A stretch of DNA of 64,000 nt from Nitrososphaerales archaeon (GTDB lineage Archaea; Thermoproteota; Nitrososphaeria; Conexivisphaerales; UBA164): NCBI GenBank assembly GCA_023256355.1, contig JAGDXJ010000053.1, positions 11,957-75,956 of the forward strand, written 5' to 3'. The translations under genes and the position numbers were made by a program. How positions within the stretch are numbered: the stretch's first letter is position 1; the number at the start of each line of letters is the position of its first letter. The notes under the pieces are model-generated. The model saw nothing but the letters and a program-made list of their open reading frames with translations, ran no database searches and was not told the DNA's origin. Shown piece after piece: positions 3,867 through 56,031 of the stretch.

Positions 3867-4168
3867 GGGCGAGCGGCCGGGCGGGTTACGGGGGAGACCT
3901 GAGGAAGCTCCTCCCTTCGTCCACGGGGTTTGGCGCGGCGACGCGCGGCGAGAGATCGCCGGCTCTGGAACAGAAACGACACCCGTGCAGGCAGATGTCT
4001 TTGATGGCAACCAATGGTTGCCGGAGGACGCCTGGTTAAGGGATGAAACGGCCATCCCAAACGAAGAAAGGCCAAAACTGGTCTATGAAACACCCGTGGG
4101 TGAGACCTAGGTTGGCCGCATAGTCAAATCCCGCCTGAACAGAAGGAGGGCTACGAGCCGCACGTCCC
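3867..4168 (+). ncRNA. rnpB: RNase P RNA (archaeal type A-like, about 302 nt)
   Basis: A sharp GC-rich island in AT-rich DNA. The 5' cctgaggaagctcc resembles the P4 strand CUGAGGAAAGUCC. taagggatgaaacgg resembles the GGGUGAAA region. The 3' aacagaaggagggctac resembles ACAGAAnnnGGCUa (the other P4 strand). The 5' gggcgagcggc can pair with the 3' gccgcacgtccc as P1. Confidence 0.8.
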
Positions 4169-30320: not shown

Positions 30321-31598
30321 TTAATTAACTGTTATCCATTCAGTGCTTTCTTTATCGAGGTTAAGAAATGCATAGCAACCACAATTTTTTATACTGGGTA
30401 CCCCAACGCTCCAAACCCCCTTGTAAATCAGGTCTATTCTTTCTTTTCCACCTCCTAAGAAAAAGTATTCCGGTACATCTTCAATAATTAACCTATCTGA
30501 AATAGATGGAACAGTTGGTATCGAGCCTACAGTAGGTGCAAGGTGCCTGGTCTTCAGAAGTTTTTTTACTGTATATTGTTCAGGCATCCCAGACGTTTTG
30601 AACATGTAGTACGCGTTATACAATAAAAAGTTTGATCCCTCAATGGTTAAATATGAAGGGTTGCTTAATAACCTGACATTCTGAGAAGAGTAAAGGTCTT
30701 TTGCAATCTTATAGCTAACAGGTTTTTGGGGTAATGCCTTCCCGGTAGAATCAGCATAGCCTGGGATTATAACTTTTAATATCCTTTTTGGCAATACTGA
30801 TAGCAACTCTGAAACCTTTTTATAGCCTTCAAGCGGTGATATGCCATTTTTTATATAAGCTAAAGAGTCAACTACATTCCCAAGGAAAAAGACACCGTCA
30901 GGCTTGATTGCTTTTAAAGAATCAAAGAAGTGTTCTACTTTGTTTGAACCGATCATAAGGTCACTTACCAGTGCTATCTTTCCTTTTATTTTTTTCCTTT
31001 TTACTTCTGGAAATTCAACATCTTCAAAATCTATCACGGAAAAATCTTCCGGGTTAATTTTTAGCGCCACGCATGATCCAGGTACGATTTCATCAAAAAT
31101 CCTTTTAGTAAAAACCTTTAATCTAAATACTCCTTTTCCATCATCAGCAAGTATTTCGTAATTATCGTTACTAATTTTTTGTACTATGAGGGCAAACCCC
31201 CAAGTTTCATCTTTACCTTTGCTTTTTATGTAATTTATATTAAAAAGGGGTATTTTGTTCGGTCTTTTTAGCCAAAGTTCTTTCATTTTTTTAAGCCTGT
31301 CGTTTAGCATTATGTTTAACTCTTCATATGTTGAAACTTGTATGCCATCTGAAAGAGATCTTTCAGTACTTATTATTAAATTTGTTTTGTCTATTTCAAG
31401 GTTTAGCCCAAAACTCTCTATATCTTTAAGAGTTATAGTGAAGTTGTTTGGTTCATATTCTTTTTTCTTTCTAATAGCTTCAATAACCCGTGGTATGAGT
31501 TCAGGTTGATCTTCCAAAACTTTAACTAGATCAGGATGAATCTGAAAACCTTCATTCAACGCCGTTATTATCAAATCTTTTATTTCAATCGATGACAT
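30321..31598 (-). CDS. DNA polymerase D small subunit (DP1)-like protein with degenerate phosphoesterase motifs
   Basis: 425 aa. It has a DP1-like N-terminal helical domain, a central OB-like region and a C-terminal calcineurin/Mre11-like domain that is collinear with DP1 (LLKTRHLAPTVGSIPTVP is conserved). The positions I recall as metal ligands read DLM, GN, GYAD, YN and GGGK where canonical DP1 has DxH, GD, GNHD, HG and GHxH. Confidence 0.7.
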   Translation of the reverse strand: MSSIEIKDLIITALNEGFQIHPDLVKVLEDQPELIPRVIEAIRKKKEYEPNNFTITLKDIESFGLNLEIDKTNLIISTERSLSDGIQVSTYEELNIMLNDRLKKMKELWLKRPNKIPLFNINYIKSKGKDETWGFALIVQKISNDNYEILADDGKGVFRLKVFTKRIFDEIVPGSCVALKINPEDFSVIDFEDVEFPEVKRKKIKGKIALVSDLMIGSNKVEHFFDSLKAIKPDGVFFLGNVVDSLAYIKNGISPLEGYKKVSELLSVLPKRILKVIIPGYADSTGKALPQKPVSYKIAKDLYSSQNVRLLSNPSYLTIEGSNFLLYNAYYMFKTSGMPEQYTVKKLLKTRHLAPTVGSIPTVPSISDRLIIEDVPEYFFLGGGKERIDLIYKGVWSVGVPSIKNCGCYAFLNLDKESTEWITVN

Positions 31599-35986: not shown

Positions 35987-35994
35987 AGTGCTAA

Positions 35995-36069
35995 GGGCCG
36001 GTGGTGTAGCTTGGTCAGCACACCGCCTTGACGCGGCGGAGGTCGCCGGTTCGAATCCGGCCCGGCCCA
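35995..36069 (+). tRNA. tRNA-Val (anticodon GAC)
   Basis: gggccggtggtgtagcttggtcagcacaccgccttgacgcggcggaggtcgccggttcgaatccggcccggccca folds into a cloverleaf. The anticodon loop is ttgacgc (GAC). No CCA is encoded. Confidence 0.9.
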
Positions 36070-36071
36070 CT

Positions 36072-38030
36072 TTAATAATAGCGGAGAAAAACGATGCTGC
36101 AAAAAGAATAGCGTTTGCCCTTGATCGTTCTTATAAAAAGCTTTCCTTTGATGGAATCCCAGTTTATACAGGTTTATGGAATTCTATAAAGATTTATGTA
36201 ATACCAGCAAGGGGACATCTTTATACTTTAAAAACAGACGTCGGAGACCTGAGTCTATTTCCTGTCTTAGACGTTGAATGGGTTCCAGTAGCAGATGACA
36301 AGTACGTTACAAAACTTTTGGATGTAATAAAAAAGTTCATCAAAGAAGCATCAGAAATTATTATAGCGTGTGACTATGACATTGAAGGTGAAACCATAGG
36401 ATATAACATAGTAAAGTATAACGGAGGTTTTGAAAAGATCGTTAAAAGGGCTAAGTTTTCGACATTAACGGTAGAAGAGTTAAAGCAAAGCTTTAACAGT
36501 CTTTTGACGCGAGAAAAATGGCTTATGGCCGATGCAGGGAGAACAAGACACTATATTGATTTTATATGGGGTATAAGCCTTTCCCGCCTTTTAATGAATG
36601 AAGTAAGGCAGGGCACAGGTAAAAGATTAAGTCTGAGCATAGGCAGGGTACAGGGTCCTACTTTGATTGAAATTTATAACAGGGAATCAGAAATAAATTC
36701 ATATGTACCAAAACCATACTGGAAGTTTAAAGCCATAGGCGAACTTAGGGGTCAAGAATTTGAACTTTCAGGCCCAAGCTTAAAAAGCGTGGATGAAGTT
36801 GAAAGAGCAAAAAAATTAAAGGGAAAATATGGGAAAGTTGTATTTTTTGATAAAGATATCGAAGAAATCAAACCTCCTTACCCTTTTAATCTCTCAGACC
36901 TACAAAAAGAAGCGTACAGACTTTTTGGAATTCAACCTTGGGAATCGCTTTCAATTTTGGAGAAATTGTATCTAAGGGCTCTTATATCTTATCCTAGAAC
37001 GAGTTCTCAGAAATTGCCACCTACAATAAATTACAGATCTATACTTTCAAAACTCGGGCAAAGATATAAAGAAGCAGGAAACGTCTCAAGGCCTCATCCT
37101 GTAGAGGGACCAATAGATGACCCCGCGCATCCTGCAATATACCCAACAGGTGAACTGCAACCTTTGACAGGCAGCGAGTATAAGCTTTATGATCTTGTTG
37201 CAAGAAGATTCATAAGTTCTTTTTACAGGAACGTTAGAGTTGCAAAAAAGTACATGAAAGTCAAAGCAGATGGTTTTGACTTAGAAGCTGATGGAGCTGC
37301 CGTGATCGATAAGGGATGGCTGGAAGTTTATCCTTTCAGGGAAATAAGGGAGAAAAGCATACCGGATGCTGCTGTTGGTGAAGAAGTCCTGATAAAAGAT
37401 GTTAATGTAGAACTAACTTTTACTAAACCTCCTTCAAGGTACACCCCATCTAGTCTCCTAGAATGGATGGAGACTAACGAAATAGGTACAAAGGCTACAC
37501 GGGCTGACATTATAAAAACGCTCTACAAAAGAGGATACATAAGGGGCAACAGGATAGAAATAACAGAGTTAGGATTTAGCGTAGCTAGATACTTTAGTTT
37601 TTCTCAAATAATAACTCTCGAGATGACAAGAAAGCTTGAGAAATCTTTGGAGAACATTGAATTTGGAAAAACTTATCCCGGTGAGATACTTAACGAGAGC
37701 GCAAGGTTTCTAATAGAAGAATTAAAAAATGCTAAATACTCAGAAGAGATGGTGGAACTTACAAAAAAGTACTTAGCCGCTGGAACCGGCCAATCATTGG
37801 GAAAATGTCCAGTATGCGGCAAAGGAGATTTGGTACTGCATATATCGCAGGCAGGGAAGAGATATTTAAAATGCAATGTATGCGGAGCATCGGCTCCGCT
37901 TCCAAGAAAAGGAAAGCTCGTATCTGCAAAGAAAAGCTGTAGCTATTGCGGATGGCCATTAATAAAAAGAGGTGGTTGGGTGTTTTGTCCAAATCCGAAT
38001 TGCCCAAGCAGCAAGCTAAAAAATGCCTAG
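36072..38030 (+). CDS. topA: DNA topoisomerase type IA (Topo III-like) with C-terminal Zn ribbons; start codon unresolved
   Basis: The TOPRIM domain LIIAEKNDAAKRIA begins 3 nt after the tRNA. SIGRVQGPTL and ISYPRTSS (catalytic Tyr) are present, with C-terminal CPVCG...CNVCG, CSYCG...CPNPNC. The only in-frame ATG/GTG/TTG upstream of the TOPRIM Glu is GTG at 35988, before the tRNA. Confidence 0.8.
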   Translation, partial: LIIAEKNDAAKRIAFALDRSYKKLSFDGIPVYTGLWNSIKIYVIPARGHLYTLKTDVGDLSLFPVLDVEWVPVADDKYVTKLLDVIKKFIKEASEIIIACDYDIEGETIGYNIVKYNGGFEKIVKRAKFSTLTVEELKQSFNSLLTREKWLMADAGRTRHYIDFIWGISLSRLLMNEVRQGTGKRLSLSIGRVQGPTLIEIYNRESEINSYVPKPYWKFKAIGELRGQEFELSGPSLKSVDEVERAKKLKGKYGKVVFFDKDIEEIKPPYPFNLSDLQKEAYRLFGIQPWESLSILEKLYLRALISYPRTSSQKLPPTINYRSILSKLGQRYKEAGNVSRPHPVEGPIDDPAHPAIYPTGELQPLTGSEYKLYDLVARRFISSFYRNVRVAKKYMKVKADGFDLEADGAAVIDKGWLEVYPFREIREKSIPDAAVGEEVLIKDVNVELTFTKPPSRYTPSSLLEWMETNEIGTKATRADIIKTLYKRGYIRGNRIEITELGFSVARYFSFSQIITLEMTRKLEKSLENIEFGKTYPGEILNESARFLIEELKNAKYSEEMVELTKKYLAAGTGQSLGKCPVCGKGDLVLHISQAGKRYLKCNVCGASAPLPRKGKLVSAKKSCSYCGWPLIKRGGWVFCPNPNCPSSKLKNA

Positions 38031-49940: not shown

Positions 49941-51473
49941 TTAATATGTTGGATAAACTTTAAGCAGCATACCTTCTACAAGTACAGGCAATTTCCTTTC
50001 AGCTATAGTTATAGCATCAGAAAGTTTGGAACTTCTTTCTGCATATATCTCTAAAAGCGGATCGTTCTTGTTGACTTTATACCCTTGTTTTTGATAAAGA
50101 ACAACACCTGCACCCTTATCGAGAGGTGCTCCAGCGGCTCTTGAGATCTCAACTATAGCTTCATTATCCACAGCGGTTACATAGCCGTCTGTTTCAGCCT
50201 TTATTATATGTCTATAACTTCCAACAGGAAGATCGTCTGGTTTTATGTTTGGATTTCCGCCTTGTGCCTCGATTATTTCTTTCATTTTTTGGTAAGTTTT
50301 ACCTTTCATTATCATATCCATTGCCGCTTCATATCCTTGCCCTTTTTGGACAACACCGGTAGCTTCTAGAAGTATTCCTGCAAGAGATGCTGACTTTGAA
50401 AGTAAACTCATGCTTGCCTGTGATGGATTTATTAATGCTGATAACGCTTCTCTTGCTTCAAGGGCTGGGCCGACAGCTCTTCCTATTGGTTGACCTCCGT
50501 AGGTTATGCCTGATCTAACACTAGCTCCAAGACTTTTTCCAAGTTCGTAAAAATCTTTTGCAAGTCTTTCAGCTTCTGAAATGTCGTTAAGCTTCGTTCC
50601 TTTTCCAACAGGCAGATCTAGGGCTATTACCTTTGCTCCAACAGCTAACTTTTTTGCAAGAACGCTCGCCATCATTAACCCTCTAGGGTTTATCCTTAAT
50701 GGGTTCTCGATCTTAATTAGATAGTCATCAGCTGGAGCAAGGTTTAAAGTGCCTCCCCATACTATGCAACCATGTGTCTTTGTTACTATTGATTTTATTT
50801 CATTCAGTGTGAACTTAACGTTTGCAAGCACAGACATTGTATCAGCGGTGCCAGAGGGGCTAGTTATCGCGCTGCTGCTTGTTTTTGGTATATAAAGATC
50901 AGTCAAAGCTACCGTAGGAACTATCAACAAAGTGACTTTATTTCCAGGCACACCCCCAATGGAATGCTTATCTACAGTAAAGCCAGGAAGATCTAACTTT
51001 TCACCGCTTTCAACCATTGCAAGAGTAAGTGTTTTTATTTCTTCAAGATCCAATCCAACATAGTTTATTGCAAATATAAACTCTGCTATTTCAAGATCAC
51101 TAAGCTCATTATCAACAAGATCTTTTATGATTTCTTTTATCTCGTTTTCAGAAAGCTTTTCTCCTTTAACTTTTTTTCTTATATATTCAACTGCAAGAGG
51201 TGTCTGCTCGTACTGCACGTTAATATTATCACCATCTTTTATGTCTAAAGCTTCTGAAAGGTCTTCGTATATGCCGATTATTCCTTTGGGCACCAAGCTC
51301 TTTGTGGTTTCAACTATACAAGTGGATGATTTTGAGTCAGAAATAACCTTCACTCTGTCGTTAAGTTCTATTCCAATTTTTTGGGCGTCCTCCTCGTTGA
51401 TTATTACGGATCTTTTACCAGCTTTTACATCTATTATTTTGGCTTTAAGTTCCACGTTAAAAAGCAATATCAA
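49941..51473 (-). CDS. deoA: AMP phosphorylase (archaeal thymidine-phosphorylase family, DeoA-type)
   Basis: 510 aa. It carries the extra N-terminal domain characteristic of AMP phosphorylases, followed by HSIGGVPGNK and SSSAITSPSGTADT. Confidence 0.8.
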   Translation of the reverse strand: MILLFNVELKAKIIDVKAGKRSVIINEEDAQKIGIELNDRVKVISDSKSSTCIVETTKSLVPKGIIGIYEDLSEALDIKDGDNINVQYEQTPLAVEYIRKKVKGEKLSENEIKEIIKDLVDNELSDLEIAEFIFAINYVGLDLEEIKTLTLAMVESGEKLDLPGFTVDKHSIGGVPGNKVTLLIVPTVALTDLYIPKTSSSAITSPSGTADTMSVLANVKFTLNEIKSIVTKTHGCIVWGGTLNLAPADDYLIKIENPLRINPRGLMMASVLAKKLAVGAKVIALDLPVGKGTKLNDISEAERLAKDFYELGKSLGASVRSGITYGGQPIGRAVGPALEAREALSALINPSQASMSLLSKSASLAGILLEATGVVQKGQGYEAAMDMIMKGKTYQKMKEIIEAQGGNPNIKPDDLPVGSYRHIIKAETDGYVTAVDNEAIVEISRAAGAPLDKGAGVVLYQKQGYKVNKNDPLLEIYAERSSKLSDAITIAERKLPVLVEGMLLKVYPTY

Positions 51474-51515
51474 CGATAGTATTAAAGCTTTAAGCTTAAA
51501 ACATTAAGCGTTACT

Positions 51516-53660
51516 ATGCTGTTTGAAGATGCGCTAAATATAAGAAAGAAAACAGACGTCGACCCTCAGGTCGATATTGAAATAAAGGACAAGTTTTATT
51601 CTATAAACGAACCGATATTTACCAAAAAAGACTTTATAAATTACGCTGAGCTCAGAGAATATCTACTTAAGCTAGTAAGCGAATCATACGGAGGTCATAA
51701 TTCCACTTATTATGATCCGCTTAAAGGTACAAAGATTAATTCAATTTTTTCAGATTATTTTGGGCAGTGGGAATCAGATTTTATTTATTTTGTTAAAGAC
51801 ATAAAGAATCCTAAAGTTGAGCCTCCTAAAGGTAACGGTTATATTGTTTTTGATATAACAAGCAGGTTCATAATCAGGTTTGTGGATGCTAAAGCACCAG
51901 TTGCTGTAGCAAGTAGCAAATTAGCCGACATTATGAATTTAAAATCGAACTCTTTGCCTGTTAAAATAGGCACATCATTTTACAGGCTATATTTTTCTGA
52001 AAACGTTAAAGCTCCCATTTTCTTTGACGGTAACACGGCTTCTTACGAACAAAAAGGGAAGGTTGTAAGTTTTGGCGAACTTCTACTTCCATTAAATTCA
52101 TGCTCTGATATTTTCGGACAGAGTTGCAAAAATAGCGTACAGAAATTTAACGAGGCTTTAGAAGAAGCAAGAACAACGGGATACTTAAGCCCATACTTTT
52201 CTTTTCCAAGATCGATTTTTAAAATTAAAATGCTTGATGAAGAAAGAATTGAACTAAGCGATACATCTATTCAGACATTAATAAATTCCTCCGTGCCTTT
52301 TGTCATTGAAAAAGAAAAAAACAGTATAAGGCTTATGGATGTTGAAGACGAAAGGACGAAAGCCATTTTGTACATAGCAAAAAGGGGCCTTGGAGGCATA
52401 AACGTATATGAACCTTACAGGGGAACTTTTAAGGTTTACATTAGAGTAGACAAAGATCTTCATGAACTTAGCAAATATGACGGAGTTCTTGCTTCTAAGA
52501 GTCTTGCAACTAACGCAACTAACTCGGGTTTAAGATTAAGGTTATGTGAAAATTGTAGCAGGACTACGCCTTTTAGAAAATGTGAAAGATGTGGATCAAA
52601 AACAGTTGAAATATATTATTGCAAAAGATGCGGTATATATACAAAAGAAAAAATTTGTCCCAAATGTGGCTCAAAAACATCAGAATCTTATATAACTGAT
52701 TTAAATTTGAATGAAAGCTTAAGTTACCTCGCTAGCAGGCTAAACATAACAGGCTTACGAAACCCAACGCTTCCTAAAAATTTATTTAACGAACCAGAAC
52801 TTCCAGATAAGCTTGTACTAAGGCAAAAAAATTCATTGTTAACAAGCAAATACGGAATTATATTGACGCCAATTAAGATGCAGGCCGGAAATATAAGCGG
52901 AAGCGAAATTGAAATGCCTGCTAAGTATGAACCTCTTATTAAGGAGATTAAATCTTTTATTTATGAAGAGTTAGTTAATGTCTACGGTAAAGAGACAGAT
53001 ATTGAGAATATAGGATCCAGTATAATTATTTTTAACAAACCCCTTAATGCCGGAATTGAGCTTAAGATAAAAGGTTACAGACAGGGTAACGAAGCTATAG
53101 TGAATCCTAACGTGCTAGAATTTGCAGGTCTAGGCGTCATTGATAACCAAGCATATTTTGCTTTAAGTGAAGATGCGGCATTAAACTGCGTATGTCCAAA
53201 GGGTAAAGGAATTATCATTTATAGGTCAGCTGAAAACGTCGATCTTTATCCTGTTAAATTAGATTATATGAGAACCCCAATATACCAGCAAAGCATAGCT
53301 GAAATAATAAAAGGCGCTATAAATTTACTTTCAAACACATATCCTGATGTCTTAAACGAAAGAGATTCAATTTCATTGATAAAGAAAGTTGAAGATATGT
53401 TTGTCAGGCAATCTTATATTTGCGAAAAGTGTGGCAAAAAGCTTAAGGTTCCTACGTTAAATATGCGATGTCCCGTATGCGGTTCAAAGTTAAGGCCAAG
53501 GTTTACCTCTTCTGATTTAAACAATTTTATTTTACAATTAAATGCTCTCACAGAGAACTTTCAGGCTTCTCCATACAAAGAGATAATCGAAATATATGTT
53601 AACAGTATAAAAAACATCTTTAGAACTTCGAGCCAGATGAGCATAGGAGATTTCTGGTAA
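51516..53660 (+). CDS. DNA polymerase D large subunit (DP2)-like protein, shortened and lacking the acidic catalytic motif
   Basis: 714 aa. Tandem Zn ribbons are at C344-C384 (CENC..CERCG..CKRCG..CPKCG). EPELPDKLVLRQKNS resembles DP2 EPLEKGLLRAKN. The C-terminal CEKCGKKLKVPTLNMRCPVCGSKL resembles DP2 CxKCNxKFRRPPLxGKCPxCGGK. The tail ends SIGDFW. There is no NCDGDED-like motif. Confidence 0.5.
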   Translation: MLFEDALNIRKKTDVDPQVDIEIKDKFYSINEPIFTKKDFINYAELREYLLKLVSESYGGHNSTYYDPLKGTKINSIFSDYFGQWESDFIYFVKDIKNPKVEPPKGNGYIVFDITSRFIIRFVDAKAPVAVASSKLADIMNLKSNSLPVKIGTSFYRLYFSENVKAPIFFDGNTASYEQKGKVVSFGELLLPLNSCSDIFGQSCKNSVQKFNEALEEARTTGYLSPYFSFPRSIFKIKMLDEERIELSDTSIQTLINSSVPFVIEKEKNSIRLMDVEDERTKAILYIAKRGLGGINVYEPYRGTFKVYIRVDKDLHELSKYDGVLASKSLATNATNSGLRLRLCENCSRTTPFRKCERCGSKTVEIYYCKRCGIYTKEKICPKCGSKTSESYITDLNLNESLSYLASRLNITGLRNPTLPKNLFNEPELPDKLVLRQKNSLLTSKYGIILTPIKMQAGNISGSEIEMPAKYEPLIKEIKSFIYEELVNVYGKETDIENIGSSIIIFNKPLNAGIELKIKGYRQGNEAIVNPNVLEFAGLGVIDNQAYFALSEDAALNCVCPKGKGIIIYRSAENVDLYPVKLDYMRTPIYQQSIAEIIKGAINLLSNTYPDVLNERDSISLIKKVEDMFVRQSYICEKCGKKLKVPTLNMRCPVCGSKLRPRFTSSDLNNFILQLNALTENFQASPYKEIIEIYVNSIKNIFRTSSQMSIGDFW

Positions 53661-53662
53661 TA

Positions 53663-54022
53663 TTAGAAATAAAAAAAGTCTAGCACAACATTTTGGGACT
53701 TTATATAGGGTTTTCCATTTCTGTTTATTATACTGGCTTTACCATGCGCCGCAACAGCGTAAGCTTTCTTTTCCCCCTCGTAAATATCCATGTTAATTAT
53801 AAAATTGCCTGTTTTTATGTCTAATATTTTTTCTCTTTGTACTATTCTAAAATTTTCTTTATGTGGTATTTCTTTTGTAATAAAATCTAGCAGTTCTTTC
53901 TTTAACCTGTTCTCAAACGAAGTATTTTTCTTTGATTTAAAAAACCCGTATACTTCTTTATCAATAGTAATTACCTTTAAGTCCTTGGGTTTGTCTTCAT
54001 CATTTGAAATTTTATTTGACAT
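53663..54022 (-). CDS. Hypothetical protein
   Basis: A 119-aa ORF with no recognisable motif. It converges on the DP2-like gene, with 2 nt between the stop codons. Confidence 0.4.
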   Translation of the reverse strand: MSNKISNDEDKPKDLKVITIDKEVYGFFKSKKNTSFENRLKKELLDFITKEIPHKENFRIVQREKILDIKTGNFIINMDIYEGEKKAYAVAAHGKASIINRNGKPYIKSQNVVLDFFYF

Positions 54023-54121: not shown

Positions 54122-55030
54122 TTGAAAGAATTAAACACATACTTTTTCGGCATATTTCCAAGATCGGAAAAGCTGATAGATATAACCCGTAAAAAGCAAA
54201 ATTACCATGAAGATCTAATACAAGAATCTCTAAAAATAATTGAGTATCAGAAATCCAAGAGCTTTAAAATTATAAGCGATCCGCAGATCACGTGGGAAGA
54301 CATGTTCAGACCCTTAGCTTTATCTGCAGAAGGCATAACCGTCAATGGTTTGAACCGATATTTTGAGACGAATACGTTTTATAAGGTGCCAGTGATTCGC
54401 GCAAAACCTTCAGTTAAAGAAGGCATACTCAAAAAGTATCTCGCAACAGGGGCAGAGCTCATATCTTTTCCAGATCCGTTTACTTTTTCATGCTTAAGTA
54501 AAGATGAGTTTTATGGGGATAAAGAAAAGTTCATAGAAGGTATAGGCAACCTTATTGCTACATTTGCTTCACAAATCAGTAAAGAGGGATACCGATATCT
54601 AATCCTAAAAGGACCATCTTACGGCAACTGTGAATTCAGAAATTATGAAAAAAGCATAAAAGACGCACTTTCTGTTATTAAAGCCTCATTTAAAGGAAAA
54701 GTTATTATTCACATTTACTTTTATAGAAATTTAAACGCGTTAAACTTTTTAGCATCTTCTCCAGTTGATGGTATAGGTGTTGACATGTATTCATTTAAAA
54801 CAGACGATATTAAAAATTTAGTAAATAATGGTAAAGAACTCGCTTTAGGAATTATAAATGGATTTAACACCAAAATGGAAAATGAAGATCATATAATAAA
54901 CGTCATAAGAAGCTTAAACTTTAACGGACCATTGTACATAACAAATAACGTGGACTTCGAATTTTTGCCGCAGAAATTTGCTTTAAAAAAGGTAGATTTG
55001 ATTTCTAAAATAGCTGGTGAGATTTCATGA
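54122..55030 (+). CDS. MetE N-terminal-domain-like protein (split cobalamin-independent methionine synthase)
   Basis: 302 aa with a TTG start. It is a UROD/MetE-like barrel, translationally coupled to the catalytic MetE-like gene. Confidence 0.6.
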   Translation: MKELNTYFFGIFPRSEKLIDITRKKQNYHEDLIQESLKIIEYQKSKSFKIISDPQITWEDMFRPLALSAEGITVNGLNRYFETNTFYKVPVIRAKPSVKEGILKKYLATGAELISFPDPFTFSCLSKDEFYGDKEKFIEGIGNLIATFASQISKEGYRYLILKGPSYGNCEFRNYEKSIKDALSVIKASFKGKVIIHIYFYRNLNALNFLASSPVDGIGVDMYSFKTDDIKNLVNNGKELALGIINGFNTKMENEDHIINVIRSLNFNGPLYITNNVDFEFLPQKFALKKVDLISKIAGEIS

Positions 55031-56031
55031 GCCTGTTTAAAACTCAGGAAATAGGAAGCTTAAAAAAGCCAAGCTGGCTGCTTGAGTACTTAAAAACGAG
55101 CACATCAGAAGAGGATAAAAAGGCAGCCCTTGACGATGCATCATTTATAAATTTAAAAATGCTCGAGCACATAGGTTTAGACTTTGTCTATGACGGAGAA
55201 GCAAGAAGGATTGAAATGTACGAGCTTCCGGCAAAGTTTATACGTGGATTTGAGTTTGTTGGAAGGGTTAGGTCATGGGATAATAAATATTATAAAAAAG
55301 CTAGGATCGTCGACAGAGTATCATTTGAAAAAAACTATCATTTAGAAGAATTCATTTTTGTAAAAGAATACGCCATAAAGACACCCAAGGTTCCAGTTAC
55401 GGGAGCTTATACCCTAATGGATTGGTCTTATAACGAATACTATAATTCAAGAGAAGATCTAGCTATGGATTTAGCAAAACAGATAATAAACAGAATATTA
55501 AAAGAACTCGAAAATGCAGGGATGAAAGTTGTGCAAATAGATGAGCCAGCAGCTACAACGCATCCAGCTGAAATGGAATTGTTCGTAAAAATATTTAATG
55601 AACAAGTTAAAGGCTTGAATGCTAAGATAAATACTCACATATGTTATAGTGGAGACGAGTATTCAAGCCTCATGCCGGTAATTCCAGATTTAAAGGCAAA
55701 ACACTTTGCTCTGGAATTTGCAAACAGGGATTCCATGAACCTTGGAGTTGACGATGCGGCAAGGCCAGGCTACAGGGCTCTGAAGGCATTCAGAGAATAT
55801 GCTAGCGATAGAGAAATAGGCCTTGGAGTATTGGATGTTCACTCCGATTATGTAGAACCGCCAGAACTGGTTAGGGATAGAATATTATATGCAGTTAAAA
55901 TATTAGGCGACCCGTCCAAAATTTACGTTAATCCTGATTGTGGGCTCAGAACAAGAAAAAGAGAAATAGCCTTTGCAAAGCTAAAAAACATGATTAAAGG
56001 AGTAAGGCTTGCAGAAGCAGCTATAAGATGA
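55027..56031 (+). CDS. metE: Cobalamin-independent methionine synthase catalytic-domain protein (MetE-like)
   Basis: 334 aa with GSLKKPSWL, VQIDEPA, HICYS and NPDCGLRTR (Zn ligands). Confidence 0.8.
   Translation: MSLFKTQEIGSLKKPSWLLEYLKTSTSEEDKKAALDDASFINLKMLEHIGLDFVYDGEARRIEMYELPAKFIRGFEFVGRVRSWDNKYYKKARIVDRVSFEKNYHLEEFIFVKEYAIKTPKVPVTGAYTLMDWSYNEYYNSREDLAMDLAKQIINRILKELENAGMKVVQIDEPAATTHPAEMELFVKIFNEQVKGLNAKINTHICYSGDEYSSLMPVIPDLKAKHFALEFANRDSMNLGVDDAARPGYRALKAFREYASDREIGLGVLDVHSDYVEPPELVRDRILYAVKILGDPSKIYVNPDCGLRTRKREIAFAKLKNMIKGVRLAEAAIR

Follow-up and report, generated by a model that had tools for sequence, protein, structure and literature searches.

An inactivated, shortened homologue of the DNA polymerase D large subunit in Conexivisphaerales-like archaea

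The stretch of DNA analysed here (the window) comprises 64,000 nucleotides of a Nitrososphaerales archaeon (assembly GCA_023256355.1, contig JAGDXJ010000053.1, positions 11,957 to 75,956 of the forward strand). An uninterrupted open reading frame (ORF) of 714 amino acids (aa), running from ATG to stop at 51516..53660 (+), encodes an inactivated, shortened homologue of DP2, the large subunit of archaeal DNA polymerase D (PolD). The protein is called DP2′ below. Its start is credible, since MLFEDAL... is kept in all orthologues, and a preliminary description of the window had given the ORF with exactly these coordinates. A second gene, at 30321..31598 (−), encodes DP1′, a 425-aa inactivated homologue of DP1, the small subunit (B-subunit) of PolD.

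Retained and lost parts of the two PolD subunits

Two NCBIfam models of DP2 match DP2′ in collinear order. The equivalog model NF003103 is matched by aa 336-448 at model positions 625-741 (E=1.1e-19; 69.7 bits, cut-off 1269), and TIGR00354 by aa 628-713 at positions 1008-1096 of 1096 (E=1.9e-8; 32.4 bits, cut-off 702). The total scores amount to ~5% of the curated cut-offs, and a full-length match to active DP2 above the cut-offs of these models, or of the Pfam families PolC_DP2_N/central/cat, is not obtained; PF24844 reaches 17.5 bits with a cut-off of 24.3, and PF03833 and PF24846 have no match to the window protein. With DP2′ as a single phmmer query, the Pyrococcus abyssi DP2 chain 6hms_B is found at E=1.5e-6, and with the family profile at 5.6e-11; the DP2 chain of Thermococcus kodakarensis is likewise matched in these searches. 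In hhalign, aa 334-708 of the family align with 639-1137 of canonical DP2s of ~1140 aa (probability 99.4, E=2.5e-21), and collinearity overall covers residues 334-714 and DP2 639-1138. The extended profile in global mode gives E=3.1e-36, where the N-terminal path forced by this mode is meaningless.

The fold extends the homology to the rest of the chain. A first AlphaFold model, built from 7 close sequences, had a predicted local distance difference test score (pLDDT) of 43 and was unusable. The final alignment, to which the distant relatives P0043, P0045, P0044 and P0042 and two canonical DP2 C-terminal fragments were added, yielded an AlphaFold (AF2) model with pLDDT 75.4 and a predicted template modelling score (pTM) of 0.69. 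When this model is compared with the PDB by Foldseek, the best eight matches are DP2 chains (E=1.9e-22 to 8.6e-13, probability 1.00), with 681-912 aligned columns and query-normalised TM values of 0.32-0.45. They include 5IJL, a chain without the C-terminal domain. The next matches are RNA polymerase beta′ chains at E ~3e-3. We conclude that the 714-aa protein is a DP2 homologue, by sequence in its C-terminal half and by fold over the whole chain, as the preliminary description had proposed, and a shortened one (714 versus ~1140 aa). The name Nop10, which the JGI annotation gives to close homologues, is a zinc-ribbon artefact: PF04135 scores 19.4 bits (cut-off 27.2) and NF009623 21.5 (cut-off 68), and the match is limited to aa 365-390 of 714, whereas Nop10 itself has ~55-60 aa.

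Three zinc modules are retained. The Zn-I/Zn-II module at 52545..52667 (+) consists of four CxxC pairs (C344/347, C356/359, C369/372, C381/384) aligned to the DP2 zinc fingers, and all eight Cys are conserved without exception in the extended family, which spans 27-92% identity. Further on, EPELPDKLVLRQKNS (aa 426-440; 52791..52835 (+)) is the counterpart of the conserved DP2 segment PEPLEKGLLRAKN in phmmer, hmmsearch and hhalign; E428, K432, L435 and R436 of this segment are invariant in the extended family. The Zn-III module at 53421..53492 (+), with C636, C639, C652 and C655 in CEKCGKKLKVPTLNMRCPVCGSKL (aa 636-659), aligns to P. abyssi DP2 1123-1142. None of its four Cys varies, nor do K638 and P646, and position 642 is K or R. 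All 12 zinc-ligand Cys of DP2′ are thereby invariant down to 27% identity.

The chain ends like that of canonical DP2. A C-terminal helical bundle follows Zn-III at 53493..53627 (+), where the TIGR00354 match extends as far as the model does and the hhalign match reaches the C-terminus, and the DP2′ model places helices at 665-680 and 686-704. The last residues, QMSIGDFW (53634..53657 (+)), resemble a PCNA-interacting peptide (PIP) and align with the canonical DP2 C-terminus (KQPTLAQFV), so that they are the counterpart of the C-terminal PIP (cPIP). The pattern is Q707-x-S709-[IL]-x-[DE]-F713-(W), where Q707, S709 and F713 are shared by every member, P0043 and P0045 included. Thus, both the C-terminal DP1-binding domain (alpha1-Zn-alpha2-alpha3) and the terminal cPIP are present by sequence. 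In PolD, Zn-III docks on DP1 and its KxRRxP loop contacts DP1. The T. kodakarensis DP2 cPIP, KGISLDEFFGS, binds PriL and PCNA, and the peptide tethers first primase and then PCNA. The preliminary description had located the four CxxC pairs (C344-C384) and the EPELPDKLVLRQKNS match correctly and had seen that Zn-III and the helical tail are kept; it overlooked the conserved C-terminal PIP box.

The catalytic parts are lost. The NCDGDED region of canonical DP2, HAAKRRNCDGDED, lies opposite L534-A546 (LEFAGLGVIDNQA; 53115..53153 (+)) in both the MAFFT and the hhalign alignment, in agreement with the collinear position (residues ~534-548) and the loss of the acidic triad suggested earlier. The catalytic Asp triad aligns to I542/N544/A546 and the preceding KRR to AGL. 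In the deepest members the triad positions read L/N/G (P0043) and R/N/L (P0045). An intact triad, which the preliminary description had taken as speaking against its proposal, as it had a lack of profile similarity, is present in no alignment, and the profile match is significant. The strongly conserved GGxMDAPL segment of the second double-psi barrel, downstream of the catalytic loop, is missing together with two further blocks of the C-terminal half, and DP2′ is ~425 residues short of canonical DP2.

Judging by these alignments, DP2′ can no longer polymerise DNA. It could be argued that it is a polymerase or nucleotidyl-transferase with a non-canonical active site, as the overall DP2-like fold is kept and two residues close to the former catalytic loop, N544 and D553, do not vary within the family, in a region that is under purifying selection. 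We consider this highly improbable: no family member retains any of the three metal-binding Asp or the KRR, the sole Asp of the loop (D543) is not conserved, with F or N at its position in P0043 and P0045, the GGxMDAPL segment is deleted throughout the family, and the KH-like PIRxxGGT motif is not detected in DP2′.

The N-terminal half (aa 1-335; 51516..52520 (+)) is family-specific. When the N-terminal profile was run exhaustively with HMMER against 1.84 billion proteins (representatives), only family members were returned, and Pfam at E<=10 gave no match to this half in six members. No significant match was found by hhalign between aa 1-335 and canonical DP2 N-termini; non-significant collinear matches pair 146-157 with DP2 309-320, 209-229 with 460-481, and 226-239 with 306-319. 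Two of these, 146-157 or 226-239, are weak candidates, also non-significant, for the hairpin of the first double-psi barrel (GGFRLRYGR). Residues 110-310 are modelled at pLDDT ~80-90. Two likenesses drawn earlier are thus not borne out: no profile method finds DP2 in aa 1-335, where DVDPQVDIEI had been compared with it, and the placement of the first barrel at GLGGINVYEPYRGTFKVYIR (292-311) has no profile support and is rejected, because the N-terminal half has no significant match outside the family. We note that the window copy has 714 aa and its closest relatives 711, owing to a 3-aa insertion (SLATNATNSG versus S---PATNSG) at aa 329-333, about nt 52500-52514, in a low-confidence linker ahead of Zn-I.

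The DP1′ gene was already described as eroded and 20 kb away from the DP2-like gene, and five of its five nuclease motifs are indeed altered. DP1′ matches PF04042 above its cut-off (E=4.5e-12), the DP1 models of NCBIfam in part, and T. kodakarensis DP1 (6knb_A) at E=1.6e-16. The phosphoesterase motifs change from SDLHIGS to SDLMIGS, GDVVDG to GNVVDS, GNHDA to GYADS, YHG to YNA, and GHVH to GGGK. The N-terminal DP1N-like domain is kept and aligns with canonical DP1N. Close homologues of DP1′ are 58-91% identical, have no Metallophos match, and come from metagenome-assembled genomes (MAGs) that also carry DP2′; the DP1′/DP2′ locus-tag pairs in single MAGs are ACP5LF_01450/01565, ACP5LW_02010/02310 and NAY82623/NAY82641.

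A small clade of DP1 homologues of 439-451 aa (P0053, P0054 and P0055, at loci L012-L014) is 25-29% identical to DP1′. It keeps motifs I, II, IV and V, and motif III changes from GNH to GE[DC]D; the member at L012 sits near Cdc6/Orc1 and RadA. This clade may represent a DP1 that is inactivated in part, and it may perhaps pair with the DP2′ of the deeper lineages. A DP1 partner of P0043 and P0045 was sought, and P0053-P0055 come from other assemblies and samples, with no genome link to them.

Distribution, selection and genomic setting

The close DP2′ family is found in 7 GTDB species genomes, all of them Nitrososphaeria/Conexivisphaerales MAGs, including UBA160 and EvPrim.Bin21, and local synteny is wholly conserved among them. 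The seven species are represented by WYER01, DAXX01/UBA160, JAVBJD01, JAWDMM01, CAYFFZ01, JBMFIC01 and JAGDXK01, and the ORF is intact and full-length in each of them as well as in the deeper lineages named next. An exhaustive search added two deeper lineages with 27-29% identity to the window protein, represented by P0045 (715 aa; a Nitrososphaerota MAG, found on many contigs) and P0043 (685 aa). A profile word-index search gave no further family members. The family is limited to a few thermoacidophilic Nitrososphaerota lineages (Conexivisphaerales-like). In the window, an AMP phosphorylase gene (Glycos_trans_3N/Glycos_transf_3/PYNP_C) lies at 49941-51473 (−), divergent from the DP2′ gene and separated from it by an AT-rich spacer of 42 bp (51474-51515). 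A divergent AMP phosphorylase gene stands upstream of DP2′ in all three lineages. Since both deeper lineages keep it, the DP2′ locus is orthologous across the three. We read DP2′ as a degenerate orthologue of PolD's catalytic subunit, DP2.

The gene is under purifying selection, which is strongest on the C-terminal domain with the DP1-docking part and the cPIP. The ratio of nonsynonymous to synonymous substitution rates (dN/dS, Nei-Gojobori) is 0.05-0.15 over the entire gene. In the N-terminal half it is 0.09-0.18, near the inactivated site 0.04-0.19, and it falls to the lowest values in the gene, 0.01-0.05, in the Zn-III/C-terminal domain. The loss of catalysis, the large deletions and an evolution faster than that of the neighbours might be taken as signs of a functionless, decaying relic, a pseudogene in progress. 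This explanation is effectively refuted already by conservation and dN/dS: the 8 orthologous DNA copies contain zero stops and zero frameshifts, the full length is conserved down to 27% identity with Cys and PIP residues invariant, and dN/dS is ~0.1 in every region, therefore the DP2′ gene is not a pseudogene.

Several further observations concern the surroundings. The window is a piece of archaeal chromosome with ~37% GC, two tRNAs, several aminoacyl-tRNA synthetases, a thermosome, and an archaeal RNase P RNA (RF00373, 205 bits) at 3869-4165 (+), which confirms the archaeal chromosomal context. An ORF of 119 aa at 53663-54022 (−) is convergent with the DP2′ gene and lies 2 bp past its stop. 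It has no match in Pfam, NCBIfam or the PDB. It stands beside the DP2′ gene in 7/7 close genomes with 55-92% identity, and a homologue adjoins the distant P0043 gene (L011, 2719-3066 (−)) in equal position and orientation (pairwise E=4e-6, 29% identity). No copy lies within 10 kb of the DP2′ gene in the P0045 lineage. The 119-aa ORF could be a functional partner or mere old synteny. A 126-aa ORF at 51127-51507 (+), antisense within the AMP phosphorylase gene and seemingly conserved at related loci, is most likely a shadow ORF kept through constraint on the opposite strand. Downstream, two adjacent overlapping genes at 54122-56031 (+) encode Meth_synt_1, then Meth_synt_2 + Meth_synt_1 (cobalamin-independent methionine synthase domains), which looks like a split MetE-like arrangement. 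Elsewhere in the window, the mechanically called ORF of a type IA topoisomerase (Toprim + Topoisom_bac; 35988-38030 (+)) has a GTG start that overlaps a tRNA-Val gene (35995-36070 (+)). Its true start must be downstream of that GTG, because the Toprim match starts at aa 28.

Relation to described PolD systems

The inactive form of DP2 is already known, at the level of one supplementary alignment. In its passages on the archaea grouped as Nitrososphaera_GB_GCA_002499005-like, the study of Kazlauskas, Krupovic & Venclovas 2020 (NAR 48:10142; PMC7544198) reports an inactive DP1, states that the group 'lacks the active DP2', and gives no PolB with a DP2-type C-terminal domain for it; DP2 homologues of the group, including NAY82641, are aligned in Fig. 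S16 with the active site marked (see also Fig. 7 and Fig. S15), and conclusions are held there to be premature with 3 MAGs. The window DP2′ and the protein of this group belong to one family: NAY82641.1 is in our 90% cluster P0002, and the representative of that cluster shares 91% identity with DP2′ of the window. Hence, we regard the finding as the rediscovery of a documented, functionally unexplored form. The orthologue in UBA160 (GCA_002499005) is 71% identical to the window DP2′, with conserved synteny, and NAY82623, the DP1 of the group, is the counterpart of the window gene at 30321-31598. What is added here is the extension to 7 GTDB species and two deeper lineages, the purifying selection, the retained cPIP and zinc modules, a map of the deleted segments and a usable structural model.

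We also considered that DP2′ is a fragmentary or degenerate paralogue beside an active PolD elsewhere in the genome. The window covers 64 kb of the genome, related MAGs may be incomplete, and canonical PolD occurs in most Nitrososphaerota. P0010 and P0046, the closest canonical DP2s, are on unrelated contigs and say nothing about a canonical DP2 in the same genome. We find such a paralogue improbable, as an active DP2 is reported to be lacking in the group in the parts of PMC7544198 that treat it, the high-identity DP1 homologues of the window copy are all inactivated, both subunits are inactivated jointly, and the locus is orthologous in three lineages.

DP2′ shares with canonical DP2 (P. abyssi 6T8H/6HMS/5IJL; T. 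kodakarensis 6KNB) the collinear C-terminal half, the overall fold, Zn-I/II, Zn-III, the helical bundle and the terminal PIP peptide. Unlike canonical DP2, it is ~425 residues shorter, lacks the triad, KRR and GGxMDAPL, and its N-terminal 335 aa are unrecognisable by sequence. In Aenigmarchaeota and Heimdall B3/LC3 the DP1 nuclease motifs are likewise lost and an active DP2 is missing. However, their PolB has a DP2-type zinc C-terminal domain able to take over DP1 binding, whereas for the GCA_002499005-like group no such PolB is reported in the passages cited above, and it is the dead DP2 that still carries the C-terminal domain. Nitrosocaldus and Crenarchaeota are thermophilic TACK lineages that replicate without active PolD, as the present lineage probably does; unlike in them, where both genes are deleted, DP1′ and DP2′ are kept, inactive yet constrained.

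A possible non-catalytic role in the replisome

We lean towards the view that DP1′-DP2′ is a non-catalytic adaptor or scaffold, kept in a replisome driven by family B polymerase (PolB). The two proteins would still heterodimerise via Zn-III and the helical bundle, as the retained sequence elements suggest, and DNA synthesis would be carried out by the family B polymerase(s). By analogy with PolD, the N-terminal domain of DP1′ may hold GINS/CMG, and the C-terminal peptide of DP2′ may bind primase PriL and/or PCNA; leftover basic clamp residues of DP2′ may still touch DNA. It is established that DP1N binds Gins51C, that PolD stimulates CMG and that PolB has no GINS binding.

In this role DP1′-DP2′ would parallel the eukaryotic assembly of Dpb2 with the non-catalytic C-terminal half of Pol epsilon. 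Like that assembly, and like the p180 C-terminal domain (CTD)/p70/PriL of Pol alpha, it would combine a dead polymerase module with a dead DP1-derived B-subunit, retained for the architecture of the replisome. PolD has homologues of both the eukaryotic CTD/B-subunit interface and the terminal hydrophobic motif that binds PriL. In the eukaryotic enzymes a dead PolB fold is fused to an active PolB, whereas DP2′ is a stand-alone dead double-psi-barrel protein, and the analogy is one that we infer.

Several observations weigh against the adaptor or scaffold role. Nitrosocaldus has lost both PolD subunits outright, so that at least one relative can do without a PolD scaffold and none is universally required. 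In the loop that contacts DP1 in PolD, KxRRxP reads KLKVPT, so that the RR pair becomes K-V, and R1122 of DP2 aligns to Ile. DP2′ has evolved much faster than its neighbour, with 27-28% identity versus 69% and 59% for AMP phosphorylase at equal depth. The DP2-like and DP1-like genes are separated by 20 kb, and both neighbourhoods consist of housekeeping genes unrelated to replication, which give no functional clue.

Part of the same evidence could be read as exaptation of DP2′/DP1′ outside replication, for example as a factor that binds nucleic acids through its zinc ribbons, re-using the old fold, in RNA metabolism, transcription or repair. Its N-terminal half has no detectable relatives beyond the family, DP2′ diverges fast, both genes lie away from replication genes, an AGOG glycosylase is encoded two genes upstream of DP2′, and similar zinc ribbons occur in Nop10, RpoP and Spt4. 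We hold this to be unlikely, since the strongest constraint is on the PolD-specific elements of replisome contact (Zn-III with the helical bundle, and the cPIP), DP1′ is co-retained including its DP1N domain, and the DP2′ gene has no link to another pathway.

A non-catalytic role of DP1′-DP2′ within the replisome remains our preferred explanation, and a stronger form of it is conceivable, although we are doubtful of it. The dead DP1′-DP2′ might be the obligatory structural core of the PolB-driven replisome, which would tether CMG through DP1N-GINS, and primase and PCNA through the DP2′ peptide. As such it would be a present-day archaeal analogue, or perhaps a frozen intermediate, of the replicase switch from PolD to PolB that gave rise to the eukaryotic arrangement of a PolB catalytic subunit, a DP2-type C-terminal domain and a dead DP1. 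DP1′-DP2′ might then also dock, non-covalently, a PolB that has no C-terminal domain. PolD is the ancestral archaeal replicase, and its C-terminal domain and small subunit persist, non-catalytic, in every eukaryotic replicative polymerase.

Last, a lineage in which both PolD subunits are dead yet constrained is a natural test of the catalysis-independent functions of PolD, such as the bridging of GINS, primase and PCNA and the stimulation of CMG. It bears on how a polymerase may be exchanged in a replisome without loss of architecture, and it offers a tractable case, with two proteins, defined peptides and known partners.

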